Below are positions 3,484 to 25,559 of a DNA stretch of 27,250 nt, in pieces (the first letter of the stretch is position 1; each line of letters opens with the position of its first letter). The stretch covers positions 1-27,250 of the forward strand of contig SCQK01000009.1 of the NCBI GenBank assembly GCA_004321885.1, given 5' to 3'. The stretch comes from Patescibacteria group bacterium. GTDB lineage: Bacteria > Patescibacteriota > Patescibacteriia > Magasanikbacterales > GWA2-37-8. Made by a program: the position numbers and the translations under genes. The notes beneath the pieces are model-generated. The model was not told the DNA's origin. It saw only the letters and a program-made list of their open reading frames with translations, and searched no databases.

Positions 3484-4623
3484 ATGGCTCTTTTCTTCCC
3501 CGGACTTTCAAAGACGTTTCTCGGACGCTACGAAAACAACCCCAAAGAGCTCCGCGTTCTCCAAGTGATCTGCGAACACCTGCGCAGTGGTTACACCACT
3601 GGAAAAAAGCGCGGCGCTGGATCTAAGGAAGACAAGGTCTTTCAAGACGCGAAGGACTCCCTGGAAAAAGAAGATGTCCCCTTGGAAAGAAAGGACTTCA
3701 TCTACATCAAAGCCGGGATCCGAATCGCCTACAAAATCCTCGTGGGCGAAGAGGGTGAGGATACGAGCACCACGCTTTCAGAAAACATCATCTCGGATTT
3801 GCGTGTGGATGGCATAACAAACTGGACAGAGGTGCTCCGGGCAAACGGCGACCTGGACTATCTGTTCAAGAATGAGCGCGAAACGGCCGCGCGGGCCGAA
3901 GCCGCGCTCACAGAAGCCCAAGCAACTCTGGAAAAGCTGGCGTCGCGCACCAACAAGGTGCGCGTGAGCGAAAAGCTCATAACCTTGGTTGGCGAACTGC
4001 TTCCCACGCTGGAGGATGTCCTCGCGGAAAACGAATCGCTCAAGGAGGCGGCATCGCGATTCGCCGAAGAGCGAACAGAATCAGAACGTAAGCTTCTCGA
4101 AGCCGAAACAATGATTCGCCTGCTCGAAGAGGACAACGATTCGGCCCAGGGCCGTTTGGACAGCGTCAGGGCAGAACTCCGGAAGGCCCATGACCTCTCG
4201 GTCTTGCAATTGGCTCTCCAATATCCACAGCATCCCCAGCTCATGGAGATAGCCCAACGCATTGAGGAAGATAAGAAGCAAGGGCAAAACGAGATGGGGA
4301 CGTTGGTTGCCCAACTACCAAAAACCTACACTGGAGGAACGATAGAATACAAGCAACGATTCCTCCGACTACTGTTCGATCTCGCGCGAAACGAACAGGA
4401 GCAGATCATCGGTCAACTGCGAAATCTGGCCGAACAGGGGCCGAAGCATGCTTCCTTGCACACGAGGAAGACGCAAATACGTCTCCTCTACAGCCCGATG
4501 GACTGCATGGTTTCCCGCGGCGCGGATGACATCCGCTTCACATGGAGCAAGGAGAACGGCGCGATTACCGTTCACTGGCTCTACCGAAAGGGCGATAGCC
4601 GCGTGCGTCAATCCGAGGCATAA
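3484..4623 (+). CDS. hypothetical coiled-coil protein in a GC-rich (foreign-looking) segment
   Basis: ATG preceded by AAGGAG 8 nt upstream. About 57-60% GC against an AT-rich neighbour. Central E/R/L/A-rich heptad-like region. Intrinsic terminator follows immediately. Confidence 0.6.
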   Translation: MALFFPGLSKTFLGRYENNPKELRVLQVICEHLRSGYTTGKKRGAGSKEDKVFQDAKDSLEKEDVPLERKDFIYIKAGIRIAYKILVGEEGEDTSTTLSENIISDLRVDGITNWTEVLRANGDLDYLFKNERETAARAEAALTEAQATLEKLASRTNKVRVSEKLITLVGELLPTLEDVLAENESLKEAASRFAEERTESERKLLEAETMIRLLEEDNDSAQGRLDSVRAELRKAHDLSVLQLALQYPQHPQLMEIAQRIEEDKKQGQNEMGTLVAQLPKTYTGGTIEYKQRFLRLLFDLARNEQEQIIGQLRNLAEQGPKHASLHTRKTQIRLLYSPMDCMVSRGADDIRFTWSKENGAITVHWLYRKGDSRVRQSEA

Positions 4624-4640
4624 TTCGCCTCCCCCGCCTT

Positions 4641-4673
4641 ATCCCGCTGTTCGCCCGGCGGGATTCTTTTTTT
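4641..4673 (+). terminator. rho-independent terminator: ATCCCGC...GCGGGAT stem followed by TCTTTTTTT
   Basis: 7-bp GC stem with 10-nt loop and a U-tract. The U-tract overlaps the stop codon of the convergent - strand gene. Confidence 0.6.
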
Positions 4674-5916
4674 ACACCAACTCAAACCTCCGCCGGCGGC
4701 CGTAGAGAAGATAAATAATGAGAGCAATAATAGCTATAAAAATAAACGTGCGGTAATACGGCACATAAAGCGCGAGAACGCCCCAGCCGCTTATCCACTC
4801 AATAGAAATTGAGCCCTGCACCGTCTCCACGTTGTTTATCAACTGTCGGTCTTGCTGGTCCAAGAAAACAAGCTGTTCCTGTTCGTTTTTTATTCGCGCG
4901 TCAATTTCATTTCGTTTCTTCTGGTACTGCGCGTTCTCGTTGGCCAAAAGCTGATTAAGCCGGCGCTGTTCGGTTGACAGATTACTAACGGCGACCGCGA
5001 TTTCCTGTTGGCGCTCGGTGCTGGTGGTAAATTCTTTTTTTAATTTATTGATACTGTTAGCCGTATAGCTTAACTGTTGTTTTAGTGAAGCGACCTTGGT
5101 ATTATGGCTGACCACCAAGTCCTGCCTTTGTTTTTGCGAATCCGCCAGAGCGCTTTGGGAAGAAGCTGTGTTTTGTTCAATGACGGTTTTCTCGGGCAAC
5201 AGATTGCGCGAGTTTATTATTTCAGCCATAAAGCGCGGACTGGCGGCCAATTCCTTCAACTCGTCCTTAAACGATTCCATCTCTGATTTGGGTAGCACAA
5301 ATTCAATGCGCGCGTATTTGGAATCCGACGATGAATTGTCTACACGGCCGCCATGCCCGCGCACTATAGTCTGAGCGCGCGTCGCTTTCTTTTGCACTTG
5401 TCGTGTTTTAATTTCGGCGTGATAATCGGTTTTCAAGTATTCGCGGGTGTCAAAGGGTGAGGCCTGCGTAAAATAACGGCCAATACTTTTAGCGGCTCCA
5501 CCAACTATCTCGCCTACGATTCCACCAGCGGTAACCTCACGCGCGCTAAGACCGGTATACGCGCCATAAACAACGCCTAAATCGTTTGCGCTGATTTCTC
5601 CAGAAGAGGATCTCTGATAGCCAACTTTGCTCGCCGCATCATAACCGTAGCCAGCAGGGTTCAAACCATGATCGGCCGAAGTTAAACGATTTAAATAGAA
5701 ACCTTGCGTAACGAAAAATAAAATAGATAACCCCCCGCAGACAAACGCAATCCGCCAAGGATAACGAAAACGGCGACGTTCGGGTTGAACAGTATTTTGC
5801 GTTCTAAGCGCGGCAAAAATCCTCGCCTTCATCGCTTCGTTGCCAATTGGCAATATTCGCTCTTTCTGCCCCCAATGATGAAGTAAATCTTTTAAATTGT
5901 AACTGACTTGTGTCAT
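4672..5916 (-). CDS. DUF4349-like membrane protein (putative anti-sigma factor partner)
   Basis: TM helix 'IAFVCGGLSILFFVTQGFY' near the N-terminus and 'VLALYVPYYRTFIFIAIIALIIYLL' at the C-terminus. Q/E/K-rich coiled-coil segment. Lies directly downstream of, and co-oriented with, the ECF sigma gene. Confidence 0.55.
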   Translation of the reverse strand: MTQVSYNLKDLLHHWGQKERILPIGNEAMKARIFAALRTQNTVQPERRRFRYPWRIAFVCGGLSILFFVTQGFYLNRLTSADHGLNPAGYGYDAASKVGYQRSSSGEISANDLGVVYGAYTGLSAREVTAGGIVGEIVGGAAKSIGRYFTQASPFDTREYLKTDYHAEIKTRQVQKKATRAQTIVRGHGGRVDNSSSDSKYARIEFVLPKSEMESFKDELKELAASPRFMAEIINSRNLLPEKTVIEQNTASSQSALADSQKQRQDLVVSHNTKVASLKQQLSYTANSINKLKKEFTTSTERQQEIAVAVSNLSTEQRRLNQLLANENAQYQKKRNEIDARIKNEQEQLVFLDQQDRQLINNVETVQGSISIEWISGWGVLALYVPYYRTFIFIAIIALIIYLLYGRRRRFELV

Positions 5917-6932: not shown

Positions 6933-8498
6933 ATGTCAAAATATATTCCCATCATCGGCCTGGAAATACACGTGGAGCTAAAAACCAAGAGCAAAATGTT
7001 TTGCTCCTGCGCCAACAACCCGGACCGCCCGCCTCGCCCGACGAGCGGGCTCGTCGAGGCGGGCGACGCCCCAAACACCAATGTCTGCGAAATCTGTCTG
7101 GCGCACCCGGGCACCTTGCCCGTGCCGAATAAAACCGCTATTGAATGGGCCGCCAAAATCGCCACTGCCCTGGGATGCAAGCTCAACAAAGAAAGTAAAT
7201 TTGACCGCAAGCATTATTTTTACCCCGACCTGCCCAAGGGCTACCAGATTTCCCAATTTGACCAGCCCATCGGCGAGCACGGCTTTATTGAACTCCAATT
7301 TCCAGTCGGCAAAAACCCGCGCGAAGCGGCGCGCATCGGTATCACTCGCGTGCATTTGGAAGAAGACACGGCAAAGTTGACCCACGGGGCGAAGGGAGAA
7401 ACTTTGGTTGACTTCAACCGCGCCGGCGTGCCCCTGGTGGAAATCGTATCCGAGCCCGACGTGCAAAGCGCCGTTGAAGCCAAGAGCTATTGCCAGGAAC
7501 TGCAAAATATTTTTCGCTATCTCGGCGTGAGCGACGCGGACATGGAAAAAGGCCACATGCGCTGTGAGGCCAACGTGTCGGTGCAGGAAGAAGGAAAATT
7601 TACAAACGACAAGGGCGTGATAAAACCGACAGGAAAAAACAAACTAAACGCCAAAGTTGAAGTGAAAAATATAAACTCTTTCCGCGCCGTGGAAAAAGCG
7701 ATTGAATTTGAAATCAAACGCCAGACCGCCATGATAGAAAAAGGCGAATCATGGAAACAGCAGACCCGCGGCTGGGATGACGACAAGGGCGAAACGATTT
7801 TACAAAGAGAAAAAGAAACCTCGGCCGATTACCGCTACTTCCCCGAGCCCGATATTCCACCGTTTAATCCGGTTAAAATCACCGGCGACATCTCTTTGCC
7901 CGAACTGCCGGCCGCCAAACGGTCTCGCTTCCGCGACGAGTATGGTTTTTCTTATTCCGACGCCGACATCTTGGCCAGCGACGCGCACTGGGCGGCTTTT
8001 ACCGAACAAGTGATGAGCGAACTCGTTGACTGGCTGAAAACTTTATCCAAAAAAGAATCTCCGGCGCAAATCGCGCGGCTGGCCGGCGGCTGGATTACTT
8101 CCAAACTGATGGGCGCCATGGCCGAACGCAAAATTGACATTCGTATTCTGAAATTAAAGCCGGAAAATTTCGCCGAACTGGTCGCTTTGATTTACACAAA
8201 CAAAGTCAACTCCACCAACGCGCAAAAAATTCTGGCCGAGATGCTGAACTCGGGCGTGGACATGGACCCCACGCATATAATGGAAGACAAGGGCTACGGC
8301 CAAATAGCCGACGAAGGCAAACTGGGCGAAGTGGTTGATGAAGTGCTCAAGAGCCACCCTGAACAAGTGGCGCAATTCAAAGCCGGCAAAGAACCGATTT
8401 TACAATTTCTAAAAGGCATGGTAATGAAAGCGACCGAGGGCTCGGCCGACCCGCAAATGGCGGAAAAATTGCTGCGGGAGAGAATTAAAATATCCTGA
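6933..8498 (+). CDS. gatB: aspartyl/glutamyl-tRNA(Asn/Gln) amidotransferase subunit B
   Basis: 'IGLEIHVELKTKSKMFCSC...NTNVCEICLAHPGTLPVPN...FDRKHYFYPDLPKGYQISQFDQPIGEHG' are typical GatB motifs. C-terminal YqeY-like tail. Contains a roughly 14-aa in-frame insertion encoded by a GC palindrome. Confidence 0.9.
   Translation: MSKYIPIIGLEIHVELKTKSKMFCSCANNPDRPPRPTSGLVEAGDAPNTNVCEICLAHPGTLPVPNKTAIEWAAKIATALGCKLNKESKFDRKHYFYPDLPKGYQISQFDQPIGEHGFIELQFPVGKNPREAARIGITRVHLEEDTAKLTHGAKGETLVDFNRAGVPLVEIVSEPDVQSAVEAKSYCQELQNIFRYLGVSDADMEKGHMRCEANVSVQEEGKFTNDKGVIKPTGKNKLNAKVEVKNINSFRAVEKAIEFEIKRQTAMIEKGESWKQQTRGWDDDKGETILQREKETSADYRYFPEPDIPPFNPVKITGDISLPELPAAKRSRFRDEYGFSYSDADILASDAHWAAFTEQVMSELVDWLKTLSKKESPAQIARLAGGWITSKLMGAMAERKIDIRILKLKPENFAELVALIYTNKVNSTNAQKILAEMLNSGVDMDPTHIMEDKGYGQIADEGKLGEVVDEVLKSHPEQVAQFKAGKEPILQFLKGMVMKATEGSADPQMAEKLLRERIKIS
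7026..7065 (+). repeat. 40-nt GC-rich near-perfect palindrome inserted in-frame in gatB
   Basis: 'cgcccgcctcg' and 'cgaggcgggcg' are perfect 11-bp arms. Inner 'cgacgag-cggg-ctcgtcg' hairpin. Encodes 'PDRPPRPTSGLVEAGDAP' between the conserved 'KMFCSC' and 'PNTNVC'. Confidence 0.7.
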
Positions 8499-8741: not shown

Positions 8742-9893
8742 ATGTACCCAGCACGGTTAATTTTAAACACCGGCCAAGAATTTCTCGGCCTTTCACCCGC
8801 CTGGCAAAAAGGCGACTTTTACGGTTTACCCTCACACCAAAAATTTTGGTGTGAGGGCGAGGTTGTTTTTACGACCGGCATGACCGGCTATGTGGAAACT
8901 CTCACCGATCCTTCGTATGCCGGACAAATTATCGTCTTCACCTATCCGCTCATCGGCAACTACGCCGTGCCGCCGGCCAAATTCTGGGAATCGGAAAAAA
9001 TCCACGCGGCCGGAGTGGTGGTAGGCGAGGCGTGCCAGTGGCCTGATACCCCCTCCTCACCTCCCTCCCGAAACAAGTTCGGGACAGGCTCTTATAAAGG
9101 GGGAGGGACTTTGGCCGGATGGCTAAGAGAACAAAAGGTGCCTTTACTCACCGGGGTGGATACTCGCCTGCTTACCAAAACACTACGCGAGAAGGGTGCC
9201 ACGCCCGGAGCGATTACGTCTTACCCCTACCTAACCTCCCCCTTAAAAAGGGGGAGGAACAGGAGGGGGTATAATTTCTTTGACCCGAACGAAACAGATC
9301 TGGTGGCGCTGGTTTCTCCCAAAAGACCGACCACTTACGGCAAGGGGAAAAAGAGAATCATCGCCGTTGATTGCGGGATGAAAAAAAATCTGCTCCGCTC
9401 ACTCTTAAAATTACCGCTGACTATAAAAATCGTGCCGTACGACTACGATTATAACAAAGAAAAATTTGACGGCGTGTTTATCTCCAATGGCCCGGGCGAC
9501 CCGGAACGTTGCGGCCGAACGATAGAAATTCTGCGCCGCGCCATGAAAAAGAAAAAACCGATTTTCGGCGTCTGTCTGGGCAACCAGCTGTTAGCACTGG
9601 CGGCCGGAGCCAAAACCTACAAACTGCCCTTTGGCCACCGCGGACAAAATCAACCCTGCCAAGACAGCGCCACTGGCCGTTGTTATATCACCAGCCAAAA
9701 CCACGGCTACGCCGTGAACCCGGCCACCCTGCCGCCGGACTGGCGCGTGAGTTTCAAAAACTTAAACGACGATTCAGTGGAAGGCATCGGCCACAAATCA
9801 TTGCCGTTTTTCGCCGTGCAATTTCATCCCGAAGCGGCGCCCGGCCCCGCAGACACGCAGTGGCTTTTTGAAAAATTTTATGAAACTTTATAA
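8742..9893 (+). CDS. carA: carbamoyl-phosphate synthase small (glutaminase) subunit
   Basis: 'VVFTTGMTGYVETLTDPSYAGQIIVFTYPLIGNY', 'PIFGVCLGNQLLALAAGAKTYKLPFGHRGQNQP' (catalytic Cys), 'FAVQFHPEA'. Two in-frame family B element insertions. Confidence 0.9.
   Translation: MYPARLILNTGQEFLGLSPAWQKGDFYGLPSHQKFWCEGEVVFTTGMTGYVETLTDPSYAGQIIVFTYPLIGNYAVPPAKFWESEKIHAAGVVVGEACQWPDTPSSPPSRNKFGTGSYKGGGTLAGWLREQKVPLLTGVDTRLLTKTLREKGATPGAITSYPYLTSPLKRGRNRRGYNFFDPNETDLVALVSPKRPTTYGKGKKRIIAVDCGMKKNLLRSLLKLPLTIKIVPYDYDYNKEKFDGVFISNGPGDPERCGRTIEILRRAMKKKKPIFGVCLGNQLLALAAGAKTYKLPFGHRGQNQPCQDSATGRCYITSQNHGYAVNPATLPPDWRVSFKNLNDDSVEGIGHKSLPFFAVQFHPEAAPGPADTQWLFEKFYETL
9049..9108 (+). repeat. family B element (compound) in-frame in carA
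   Basis: 'cccctcctcacctccctcccgaaacaagttcgggacaggctcttataaagggggaggg' encodes 'PSSPPSRNKFGTGSYKGGG'. Contains inner hairpin TCCCGAA-acaag-TTCGGGA. Confidence 0.6.
9235..9272 (+). repeat. family B element in-frame in carA
   Basis: 'cctccccc-ttaaaaa-gggggagg-aacaggagggggtat' encodes 'SPLKRGRNRRGY'. Confidence 0.65.
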
Positions 9894-12800: not shown

Positions 12801-13110
12801 CGGCACCCACGACTTTTTGTCGCGCCACGGAGTGGCCAGCAACTTTGTTTACAAAATCAGCGAGCAAAACAAGCCGAACGTGGAGGCAACGATTTCAGAA
12901 AAGCAAGTTGACGTAATCATTGTCATTCCGAGCGAAGCGAGGAATCTCTGTTTATCAAACGACAGCGACGGCTACAAAATTCGCCGGCTGGCCACGGACC
13001 GCCACATCCCACTTATCACCAACTCGCAAACCGCTATTTTGCTCTTGCGCTGTCTCACCGAACTTGACGCCAATAAAATGCCGATAAAATCGTGGCAAGA
13101 ATATTTTTAA
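9868..13110 (+). CDS. carB: carbamoyl-phosphate synthase large subunit
   Basis: 1080 aa. Two ATP-grasp halves ('[20 protein letters not shown]', '[20 protein letters not shown]') and a C-terminal MGS-like domain. Overlaps the carA 3' end by 26 nt. Confidence 0.95.
12481..12517 (+). repeat. family B element in-frame in carB
   Basis: 'cctccccc-tctta-gggggagg-ataaaggagggggtat' encodes '[13 protein letters not shown]'. Confidence 0.7.
12921..12946 (+). repeat. family A short hairpin element in-frame in carB
   Basis: 'tgtcattccgagcgaagcgaggaatc' encodes 'VIPSEARNL' in the MGS-like domain. Confidence 0.6.
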
Positions 13111-13191
13111 TGTCATTGCGAGGAGCGGAGCGACGAAGCAATCCCATACAATTAAGGGGATTGCCACGGCCCTGCGGGCCTCGCAATGACA
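13111..13191 (+). repeat. family A full-length palindromic element filling the carB-pyrB intergenic space
   Basis: Begins immediately after the carB TAA. Termini 'tgtcattgcgagg...cctcgcaatgaca' are 13-bp perfect inverted repeats. Inner hairpin 'gcaatccc...gggattgc'. Confidence 0.75.
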
Positions 13192-13199
13192 ATACAATT

Positions 13200-14120
13200 A
13201 TGCCAAACACACTCAAAGGCAGGGACATAATTTCCATCGCGGAACTTTCCAAGCCGGAAATTCTGCTGGTGCTAAAAAACGCGCAAGAATTAAAAAAACA
13301 CCCGCGCCCGAAACTGCTGGAAGGGCTGGTGATGGGCAGTTGTTTTTTTGAACCCAGCACGCGCACGCGCTTGTCGTTTGAAACAGCCATGCAGAAGTTG
13401 GGCGGACGGGTAATCGGCTTTGCCGACCCGGGCGTGACTTCGGCCAAGAAAGGCGAGTCGCTGTACGACGCCATAAAAATCATCGGCCAATACGTGGATG
13501 TCATCGCCATGCGCCATCCGTTGGAGGGAGCGGCGCGACGCGCGGCCGAGGCCACGGACAAACCAATCATCAACGGCGGCGACGGAGCCAACCAGCACCC
13601 CACCCAAACCCTGCTGGACTTGTTCACTATTCAAGAATGCCAGAAAAAATTAAGCAACCTTCATATCGCCATGGTCGGCGACCTGAAATATGGCCGCACC
13701 GTGCACTCGCTGGCCCAGGCGCTTACCCATTTTGGCGCCCGCCTGTATTTCGTGGCGCCCGACAGCTTGCAGATGCCCGCGTATATTTGCGATGAATTAA
13801 AAACCAAAGGCGTCAAATTCTCCATGCACAAAAAAATGGAAGAGGTAATCGGCAAAGTTGATATTTTTTACATGACCCGCATCCAGGGCGAACGTTTTGC
13901 CGACCCGATGGAGTACGAAAAAGTAAAAAACAGTTTCGTGCTCAAGGCCGACATGCTAAAAAACGCCAAACCAAACCTGAAAATCTTGCACCCCTTGCCG
14001 CGCGTGAACGAAATTGAAACAGCCATAGACAAAACAAAATTCGCCTACTATTTCCAGCAAGCGGAAAACGGGCTCTATGCCCGCCAGGCCCTGCTGGCGA
14101 TGGTGTTGGGAAAAATTTAA
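13200..14120 (+). CDS. pyrB: aspartate carbamoyltransferase catalytic subunit
   Basis: '[11 protein letters not shown]', 'HPTQTLLDL' and 'LHPLPR' motifs. Start taken at 'MPNTLKGRD' (ATG 13200), just after the element. The ORF-track 13092 start reads through the palindrome. Confidence 0.9.
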
Positions 14121-14123
14121 TAA

Positions 14124-14208
14124 TGTCATTGCGAGGCCCAAGGGGCCGAAGCAATCTCAGACAAGTAAGGGATTGCCACGTCGGCCTGCAGGCCTCCTCG
14201 CAATGACA
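14124..14208 (+). repeat. family A full-length palindromic element filling the pyrB-pyrI intergenic space
   Basis: 'tgtcattgcgagg...cctcctcgcaatgaca'. Same architecture as 13111-13191, with a different centre. Confidence 0.75.
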
Positions 14209-17921: not shown

Positions 17922-18067
17922 CCCCCTCCCCTATTTGCGAAAAGAGTGAGAGAAAAAGCAAACTTGTTGCTTTTTCCGAACGAATGAGCAAATATCCGCA
18001 GATATTAGGGGAGGGATAAACCCCGTTAGAGGTCTGCAGACCTCTAACGGGGTAAAGGGTGGGGTTA
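17922..18067 (+). repeat. compound family B region in the pyrD-pyrK intergenic space
   Basis: 'cccctcccc' (17922) pairs with 'ggggaggg' (18008) across a 70-nt insert that contains AAAAAGCAA-acttg-TTGCTTTTT. This is followed by a perfect hairpin 'ccccgttagaggtctgcagacctctaacgggg' (18021-18052). A 'taaagggtggggtt' SD-like tail precedes the pyrK ATG. Confidence 0.6.
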
Positions 18068-21640: not shown

Positions 21641-21754
21641 CCCCTCCCCCACCCTCCCCTTATAAAGGGGAGGGTGCAATTTTCCTCCCCCTTTATAAGG
21701 GGGAGGCTCGCCACCACACCAAATGCTTTGGTGTGGTGGCGAGGAGGGGGTAAA
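21641..21754 (+). repeat. two tandem family B hairpins plus a 14-bp perfect hairpin and SD tail in the pyrE-pyrF spacer
   Basis: 'ccctcccc-ttataaa-ggggaggg', 'cctccccc-tttataa-gggggagg', 'ctcgccaccacacc-aaatgcttt-ggtgtggtggcgag' (21707-21743), then 'gagggggtaaaaatt' before ATG. Confidence 0.7.
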
Positions 21755-25523: not shown

Positions 25524-25559
25524 AAAAAGAATCCCCGCCTTGGGCGGGGTTCTTTTTTT
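25524..25559. terminator. bidirectional intrinsic terminator CCCCGCC-ttg-GGCGGGG flanked by A-tract and T-tract
   Basis: 'aaaaagaatccccgccttgggcggggttcttttttt'. Serves the convergent small ORF (+) and efp (-). Confidence 0.7.

Follow-up and report, generated by a model that had tools for sequence, protein, structure and literature searches.

The gatB locus and its palindrome

The 27,250-nucleotide (nt) stretch of DNA analysed here, referred to as the window, is a complete contig of a bacterium of the Patescibacteria (candidate phyla radiation, CPR). Its gatB gene carries a GC-rich palindrome in frame, and the subject of this report is a 36-nt hairpin unit within that palindrome, which we call the W element. 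The features concerned are the following.

6933..8498, + strand: gatB coding sequence, 521 amino acids, intact and full length (open reading frame list, Pfam, AlphaFold2)
7026..7036, no strand assigned: left 11-nt arm CGCCCGCCTCG, beginning with 2 nt of gatB flank (codon R32) (sequence)
7028..7063, no strand assigned: 36-nt hairpin element of the W type, CCCGCCTCGCCCGACGAGCGGGCTCGTCGAGGCGGG, the unit common to copies elsewhere
7029..7064, + strand: GatB codons 33-44, PPRPTSGLVEAG, 12 added residues, with a boundary ambiguous by 1-2 nt
7040..7055, no strand assigned: inner hairpin GACGAG-CGGG-CTCGTC (sequence, folds and a compensatory change in contig L166)
7055..7065, no strand assigned: right 11-nt arm CGAGGCGGGCG, of which the last 2 nt are flank (sequence)

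In protein searches, the window GatB was 100% identical to an NCBI protein labelled 'Patescibacteria group bacterium', and its nearest other relatives, mostly labelled Candidatus Magasanikbacteria, were 66-77% identical. Both of its Pfam domains are full-length (GatB_N, E=4e-111; GatB_Yqey, E=1.5e-35), and the AlphaFold2 model has a mean predicted local distance difference test score (pLDDT) of 84.5.

A sequence-only reading of this DNA had described a 40-nt palindrome with perfect 11-bp arms at 7026-7065, and it is present letter by letter as CGCCCGCCTCG-CCC-GACGAG-CGGG-CTCGTC/GAGGCGGGCG. A search for further copies of the arms, which that reading had proposed, was made in the window with one mismatch allowed and found no second occurrence. 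The reading also placed a 7-bp hairpin, GACGAGC/GCTCGTC, inside the palindrome. The complementarity is there, but seven pairs would leave a 2-nt loop and take their last C from the outer arm, and the realistic extent of the inner stem is 5-6 bp (7040-7045 / 7050-7055) with the loop CGGG. A CCC bulge at 7037-7039 offsets the inner hairpin from the outer stem, which makes the element asymmetric and gives it an orientation. The palindrome had been noticed as a GC outlier, and with a GC content of 85%, rather than the roughly 80% first estimated, it is the most GC-rich 40-mer of 27,210 window positions (window, 49%; gatB, 52%). It has no sequence in common with the other palindrome families of the window, in agreement with its having been set apart from two of them, A and B, as a distinct class. 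The contig is strongly enriched in perfect hairpins whose arms reach 11 bp or more and whose loop does not exceed 30 nt. It has 8 distinct examples, whereas dinucleotide shuffles average 0.26 and never have more than 2. The 60-nt stretch containing the gatB palindrome folds with -19.8 kcal/mol as DNA and -31.8 kcal/mol as RNA (z of about -2.6 relative to shuffles of equal GC richness).

Alignment with the closest GatB proteins places the insertion between codons 32 and 45. Here 117 of 120 relatives read NNPDR-DAPNTN with nothing between, and the window protein reads ...NNPDR-PPRPTSGLVEAG-DAPNTN, a gain of exactly 12 amino acids, or 36 nt. This net gain equals the length of the element, which leaves room for a target duplication of 1-2 nt at most. 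The in-frame insertion between the motifs KMFCSC and PNTNVC, and the coding of PPRPTSGLVEAG by the palindrome within 6933-8498, are thus as first described. What did not stand was the equation of the inserted unit with the full 40 nt, since the mobile unit is the 36 nt at 7028-7063, built of 9-bp terminal inverted repeats (CCCGCCTCG/CGAGGCGGG) around the small offset inner hairpin. The solved GatB structures (Aquifex aeolicus 3h0l, Thermotoga maritima 3al0 and Staphylococcus aureus 2df4) lack the PPRPTSGLVEAG segment and have a short 'VEFGAE'-type loop at this site, matching the 'xxFGAE' loop that the sequence-only reading gave for homologs. A 48-amino-acid N-terminal query that included the insert returned only five short fragments, all without it, and no distant orthologues were found that have the same segment without symmetry in their DNA.

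The insert lies in a loop between a CxC and a CxxC pair of cysteines (C24, C26, C52 and C55) that are invariant in 42 aligned relatives and that, as in A. aeolicus, would form a zinc site. In the otherwise confident AlphaFold2 model, pLDDT falls below 50 only at residues 34-44, which have no secondary structure. The 12 residues should therefore form a floppy, disordered loop at a position expected to tolerate it, and GatB with the insert presumably remains functional. All six reading frames of the element are free of stop codons and its length is a multiple of three, so that a host gene stays open.

Two other relatives have inserts in the same loop. The GatB homologue P0108 contains a 30-nt unit, GCCCGCCTTGACGAGCCATGGGCGAGGCAG, that starts 2 nt away from the window insertion point and encodes ARLDEPWARQ in another reading frame. 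Over the first 18 nt, this unit agrees with the reverse-complemented window element at 17 of 18 positions (0/2000 shuffles did as well). Its orientation relative to the window copy is ambiguous because the W element is nearly palindromic. In P0076, the loop contains two mini-hairpins, CCCGCCaaaGGCGGG and TGCGCCtctGGCGCA. All three gatB inserts share CCCGCC/GGCGGG caps, and their sequences suggest that this loop was hit more than once. The gene just 3′ of the P0076 gatB (L002, 4512-4862) has Pfam hits of the 23S_rRNA_IVP/bAvd type, an accessory-protein fold of diversity-generating retroelements; no connection between this gene and the P0076 insert was evident.

Copies of the W element in other genes and genomes

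The W element fits the pattern CCCGCC N3-30 GGCGGG, and a metagenome scan yielded 55 loci, nearly all in DNA of 34-54% GC. Identical W elements were found in at least eight distinct flank contexts (GC 0.34-0.50). The same 36 nt lie between differing flanks in contigs L095, L135, L143, L151 and L159 and in 17 contigs with ksgA, and the block common to these copies is CCCGCC...GGCGGG, 36 nt long. They are not all orthologous, as they occupy several genes and several sites, and the known copies are largely intragenic. In L095, assigned to Candidatus Magasanikbacteria, W is present letter for letter over 36-38 nt or more between unrelated flanks, in a different open reading frame (ORF) of 345 amino acids, where it encodes the same peptide PPRPTSGLVEAG. 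In L135, an orthologue of this ORF has W at the same site in the opposite orientation, encoding PPRRARSSGEAG. The ksgA copies are likewise reversed relative to gatB. Other copies are found in AT-rich intergenic DNA (L151) and in clusters nested among other CPR palindromes (L159, L138). The element recurs in independent assemblies from JGI, ENA, Logan and NCBI. Identity over 36 nt in unrelated genes and intergenic DNA of other genomes bears out the view that this is an element of the repeat type and not a loop driven by the protein.

Seventeen contigs carry W in ksgA/rsmA (confirmed as KsgA), where the protein reads ...QKEVAQRIC-PPRRARSSGEAG-AKPP.... The carriers belong to several diverged lineages of Patescibacteria and show six flank types. 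The ksgA flanks, taken as 150 nt on each side, are 41-65% identical without gaps in most lineage pairs (about 62% across the diverged lineages), whereas the 37-nt element is identical at 37/37 positions in every pair, which points to conservation acting at the level of DNA and greatly exceeding that of the codons around it. A more distant ksgA copy in L166 (protein 58% identical) differs within the element by an A->C and a T->G change, which together convert an A-T pair of the inner stem to C-G. These changes are compensatory and leave the stem paired, suggesting that the hairpin is maintained.

About 30 of the 120 closest KsgA proteins have an insert at or beside 'RIC^AKPP', with at least ten different sequences, and the W-bearing proteins are scattered among proteins with an empty site in a neighbour-joining tree, giving a patchy distribution. 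The KsgA loop 'QRIC^AKPP' is thus an insertion hot spot. The DNA of five further ksgA inserts was inspected. Those in L162, L163 and L166 are hairpins with exact CCCGCC/GGCGGG caps and different interiors, that in L167 is a short quasi-palindrome with a decayed cap (GCCCGCC...GGCAGGC), and that in L164 is an unrelated hairpin. The insert of another KsgA homologue, P0179 (ASPPHQKFWCGG), and a palindrome in the carA gene of the window are of one family.

A pattern derived from the two related gatB inserts was also run against 185,579 species-representative genomes, a collection without the window contig, and returned 101 loci, most of them inside conserved genes in genomes of at least 63% GC. 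About 90 of the 101, in these GC-rich genomes, were rejected as codon-driven chance matches (ARLDE...). The matches in DNA of 48-54% GC are real relatives; they include the L095 copy, a unit beside a tRNA gene in Brennerbacteria (L082) and one in a giant ORF of a Giovannonibacteria genome. Related units are also present in several copies in a Gram-negative metagenome-assembled genome of 49% GC.

One related type, which we call the 'T/A' unit (GCCCGCCTTGACGAGCC-NNNN-GGCGAGGCAGG), occurs between genes in clusters, both tandem and inverted, that have GGATTGCGG spacers and resemble bacterial interspersed mosaic elements (BIMEs). The clusters (L110, L132 at 720-890 and 4945-5060, L086, L025 and L059) come from a Gram-negative lineage of 49-50% GC that has LptE and is labelled 'uncultured delta proteobacterium MFD04492.bin.2.7'. 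In CPR genomes the unit is single, as in the P0108 gatB and beside the Brennerbacteria tRNA gene. Its presence in both the Gram-negative lineage and CPR means that the family crosses phylum boundaries.

Two further observations concern the copies themselves. The L095 ORF (3188-4222, - strand), which has no Pfam match, seems to contain several different repeat-encoded segments: PPRPTSGLVEAG, ...SETPARLNDVPPERLCRAGSRSGGKNPL... and ...PPLAPPLIGEGTTEDSRITARASSPYKGGDRGGG..., which suggests multiple in-frame palindrome insertions in one gene. In five contexts, TTTG(G) or the complementary CCAAA(C) is found at a distance of 0-9 nt from where the element is inserted: gatB ^CGACGCCCCAAAC (7064-7080), ksgA AATTTG^CGCCAAAC (L158, 8770-8830), L095 ^CCAAAC (3880-3895), L135 AAATTTGG^ and L151 GTTTTG^. 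This motif, noticed after the fact, may be a target motif.

Origin and maintenance of the element

The gatB palindrome is probably one copy of a low-copy, short, GC-rich dispersed hairpin repeat of Patescibacteria that is tolerated in a disordered surface loop, and W looks like selfish repeat DNA living inside protein-coding genes. Such a repeat would spread, or be copied, as DNA; it would be non-autonomous and would fold into a cruciform or, as a single strand, into a hairpin. One candidate for its mover would be a hairpin-recognising enzyme acting in trans, such as a Y1/HUH transposase of the type shared by IS200/IS605 and the transposases (RAYTs) associated with repetitive extragenic palindromic (REP) sequences. 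Y1/HUH transposases, including the TnpA of IS200/IS605 and the RAYTs that act on REPs, use a single-strand 'peel and paste' chemistry, and they are the best precedent for a hairpin-bearing unit being inserted without target duplication. The other candidate is template switching, or copy-choice, between capped hairpins via their shared arms, which would also account for orientation flips and for the turnover of interiors at a fixed site. In either case, selection would then retain only those copies that had landed in permissive loops.

Several observations weigh against a dispersed selfish repeat. Orthologous ksgA copies are 100% identical even between diverged lineages, which simple selfish transposition does not explain and which needs site-specific re-insertion, concerted evolution or a sequence-specific function. 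This perfect identity is the most interesting loose end of the analysis. Copy number is low, with one copy in the 27-kb contig and at most one match to the exact pattern in each of four CPR species-representative genomes, counts from exact matching, which misses diverged copies. The viral contigs, phage records and plasmid records searched gave no real match that would identify a vector, and neither the window nor the loci examined contained a transposase or RAYT-like gene (Pfam and large ORFs). Nor was there a closely related gatB strain with an empty site by which to date the insertion, the empty sites compared being in proteins 66-77% identical.

An alternative, which we regard as possible although doubtful, is that a single old insertion of a capped hairpin at a permissive or hot-spot site had its interior overwritten by copy-choice or gene conversion via the shared arms and was sometimes lost precisely, so that the hairpin was converted and not transposed. 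The same ksgA position holds different interiors within CCCGCC/GGCGGG caps (L158, L162, L163, L166 and, with a decayed cap, L167), and these caps are common to the three gatB inserts. Opposite orientations at one site in L095 and L135 are the outcome expected from recombination between arms, and the identity of elements within diverged flanks fits homogenisation. However, a process within genomes cannot by itself keep elements identical between genomes whose flanks are about 62% identical, the 117 GatB sequences with nothing at the site had no hairpin to convert, and the 2-nt displacement of the P0108 unit argues for separate entries.

We consider it improbable that the hairpin is kept for a host function, acting in cis as structured DNA or RNA. 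Such a structure might bind a protein, cause pausing, be an RNase site or serve as a stem of the terminator type that lacks a U-tract. Such a function would account for the extreme conservation (37/37 against flanks of about 62%), and the compensatory change that keeps the inner stem and the strength of the hairpin as RNA also speak for it. So do the other occurrences of the stem in the window, where CCCGCC N3-30 GGCGGG is found three times against 0.18 expected. Two of these are intergenic hairpins (4633-4662 and 25534-25548) whose CCCGCC...GGCGGG stem is also that of the gatB element, and a T-run follows each; the latter also has an A-run on its 5′ side. Both look like intrinsic, rho-independent terminators, the second one bidirectional. 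Unlike them, the gatB copy lies 93 nt inside a coding sequence and has no U-tract, and a terminator role for it was rejected because no U/T-run follows on either strand (downstream CGACGCCCCAAAC in sense, GGTCCGGGTTGTTGG in antisense). In addition, the element lies in both orientations within mRNAs of unrelated genes, with no common RNA-level role evident, and most orthologues do without it. Rfam gave no match even at a permissive E-value, the best overlap being CRISPR-DR28 (E=9.4, 14 bits against a gathering threshold of 35), and nothing was found over seven other copy loci.

The remaining explanations are ruled out by the identical copies elsewhere. An origin of the palindrome within gatB by replication error, through template switching or hairpin-primed synthesis, is very hard to credit. 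Template-switch mutations are known to create perfect inverted repeats and each 11-bp arm ends on its outer side in 2 nt of gatB flank, but the window holds no local template for the 36 nt, and the same 36-mer is found in other genes and other genomes. An adaptation of the GatB protein with incidental DNA symmetry has next to nothing to recommend it, since, although the surface loop is variable and also longer in two other lineages, it has a predicted disordered state, identical DNA specifies unrelated peptides when read in other frames or orientations and occurs outside genes, and chance comes nowhere near producing a perfect 11-bp palindrome with 85% GC. An assembly or sequencing artefact is scarcely conceivable, as the exact window GatB is known from a single contig but the insert is exactly in frame, the element recurs in many independent assemblies and it matches no adaptor-like or vector-like collection entries.

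One 36-nt element here links insertions that kept the frame of at least three unrelated genes, most of them essential, and it links these in turn with the repeated use of the same loops by different hairpins and with conservation at the DNA level above that of codons. Should this be general, the annotation and alignment of CPR proteins would be affected, in that many 'lineage-specific loops' would be repeat DNA. The element would also serve to mark DNA that has recently moved among uncultured episymbionts, and it would point to an activity that handles hairpins in genomes where very few mobile-element enzymes are known. Interest would rise further if the pattern of hot spots and conservation reflected a dedicated insertion or maintenance system. 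A bolder proposal, to which we give limited credence, is a superfamily of CCCGCC...GGCGGG-capped CPR hairpins that home to a few loops of essential genes (the GatB Zn-loop and KsgA 'RIC^AKPP'), flip in place and stay nucleotide-identical across lineages whose flanking codons are about 62% identical. If true, an active, sequence-specific insertion or maintenance system would be implied, rather than passive junk, and minimal proteomes would repeatedly gain new surface loops in this way.

Known palindromic repeats and other palindromes of the contig

Rickettsia and a few other bacteria are known to have small palindromic repeats within their genes, and the original work on Rickettsia palindromic elements (RPEs) is reportedly that of Ogata et al. 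2000. The behaviour of W matches that of RPEs and of intragenic REPs, and its size and shape match those of REPs. As with RPEs, palindromic repeat DNA lies in frame in essential genes of a reduced-genome bacterium, the frame is left open, a short peptide is added, and copies also occur in non-coding DNA. Insertion in frame with the frame kept was seen in gatB, in ksgA and in the gene shared by L095 and L135. Unlike RPEs, W has 36 nt against about 100-150 nt for RPE-1, lacks a terminal CGTC tag and has a very low copy number per genome as far as is visible. It is found in another phylum, Patescibacteria, and its sequence appears unrelated. W is also identical in sequence across diverged lineages, and several hairpins reuse the same loop, again unlike RPEs.

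The likeness to REPs lies in the W element being a short (20-40 nt) GC-rich imperfect palindrome, with 36 nt, 9-bp terminal arms and an inner hairpin, that occurs in both orientations without evident target duplication; the related 'T/A' units, moreover, form tandem and inverted intergenic clusters in a Gram-negative lineage (L110, L132). REPs are defined by a conserved tetranucleotide, GTAG or CGTC, at one of their ends, some species have documented intragenic REPs, and the short intragenic RPE-4 and RPE-6 have been counted among the REPs tagged with CGTC (Di Nocera et al. 2013, PMC3733652). The flanks of eight independent W copies share neither GTAG nor CGTC as an end tag, and CGTC is internal only (GCTCGTCGAGG). 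REPs usually number more than 100 per genome and are mostly extragenic, whereas exact matching gave no more than one copy in each of the four CPR genomes sampled, and W is intragenic here. REP, BIME and REPIN elements are mobilised by RAYT tyrosine transposases (PMC2817692, PMC3116915, PMC3733652), and in this respect W differs as well, as no RAYT gene was present in the window or the fetched loci and no REPtron organisation was found. L132 was considered as a REPtron and rejected, as the 4-kb segment between its inverted repeat clusters encodes a leucyl-tRNA synthetase (leuS) and argininosuccinate synthase (argG).

MITEs (miniature transposable elements with inverted repeats) and enterobacterial small mobile sequences also occur inside genes (Delihas, PMC2759123, PMC3184786; reviewed in PMC10969869). 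Like MITEs, W is a small, non-autonomous repeat that has inverted repeats at its ends and can sit in ORFs and add a peptide. Unlike MITEs, which typically have 50-500 nt, it has 36 nt, a target duplication of 0-2 nt at most and no parent insertion sequence that we could find. W is not a member of the RPE or REP families as these are defined, since it has no end tag, is not high-copy where this can be checked, shows no RAYT, appears unrelated in sequence and has an unrelated host. It is better described as REP/RPE-like hairpin DNA inside genes, a known kind of sequence for which a literature search, within a limited library, found no account in CPR bacteria.

In the contig, gatB neighbours a pyrimidine-biosynthesis cluster (carAB, pyrB/I, pyrC, pyrD, pyrE and pyrF), and the contig shows partial synteny with that of the closest GatB homologue. 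Further palindromes occur in the contig. The carA gene (8742-9893) contains two in frame, at 8829-8857 and 9224-9268. One, CCCTCACACCAAAA-T-TTTTGGTGTGAGGG, encodes ...PSHQKFWCEG..., and the other, CCTCCCCCTT-AAA-AAGGGGGAGG, encodes ...TSPLKRGRNRRG.... Both coincide with segments missing from solved structures of CarA/carbamoyl phosphate synthetase, and the family of the first is also found at 21707-21743. Pairs of TGTCATTGCGAGG...CCTCGCAATGACA surround pyrB (13101-13201 and 14124-14208), and this family overlaps the start of the pyrB ORF. Finally, a perfect 34-nt intergenic palindrome, ACCCCGTTAGAGGTCTG/CAGACCTCTAACGGGGT, lies at 18020-18053, and another palindrome family, CCCCTTATAAAGGGG...CCCCTTTATAAGGGG, is present at 21656-21702.

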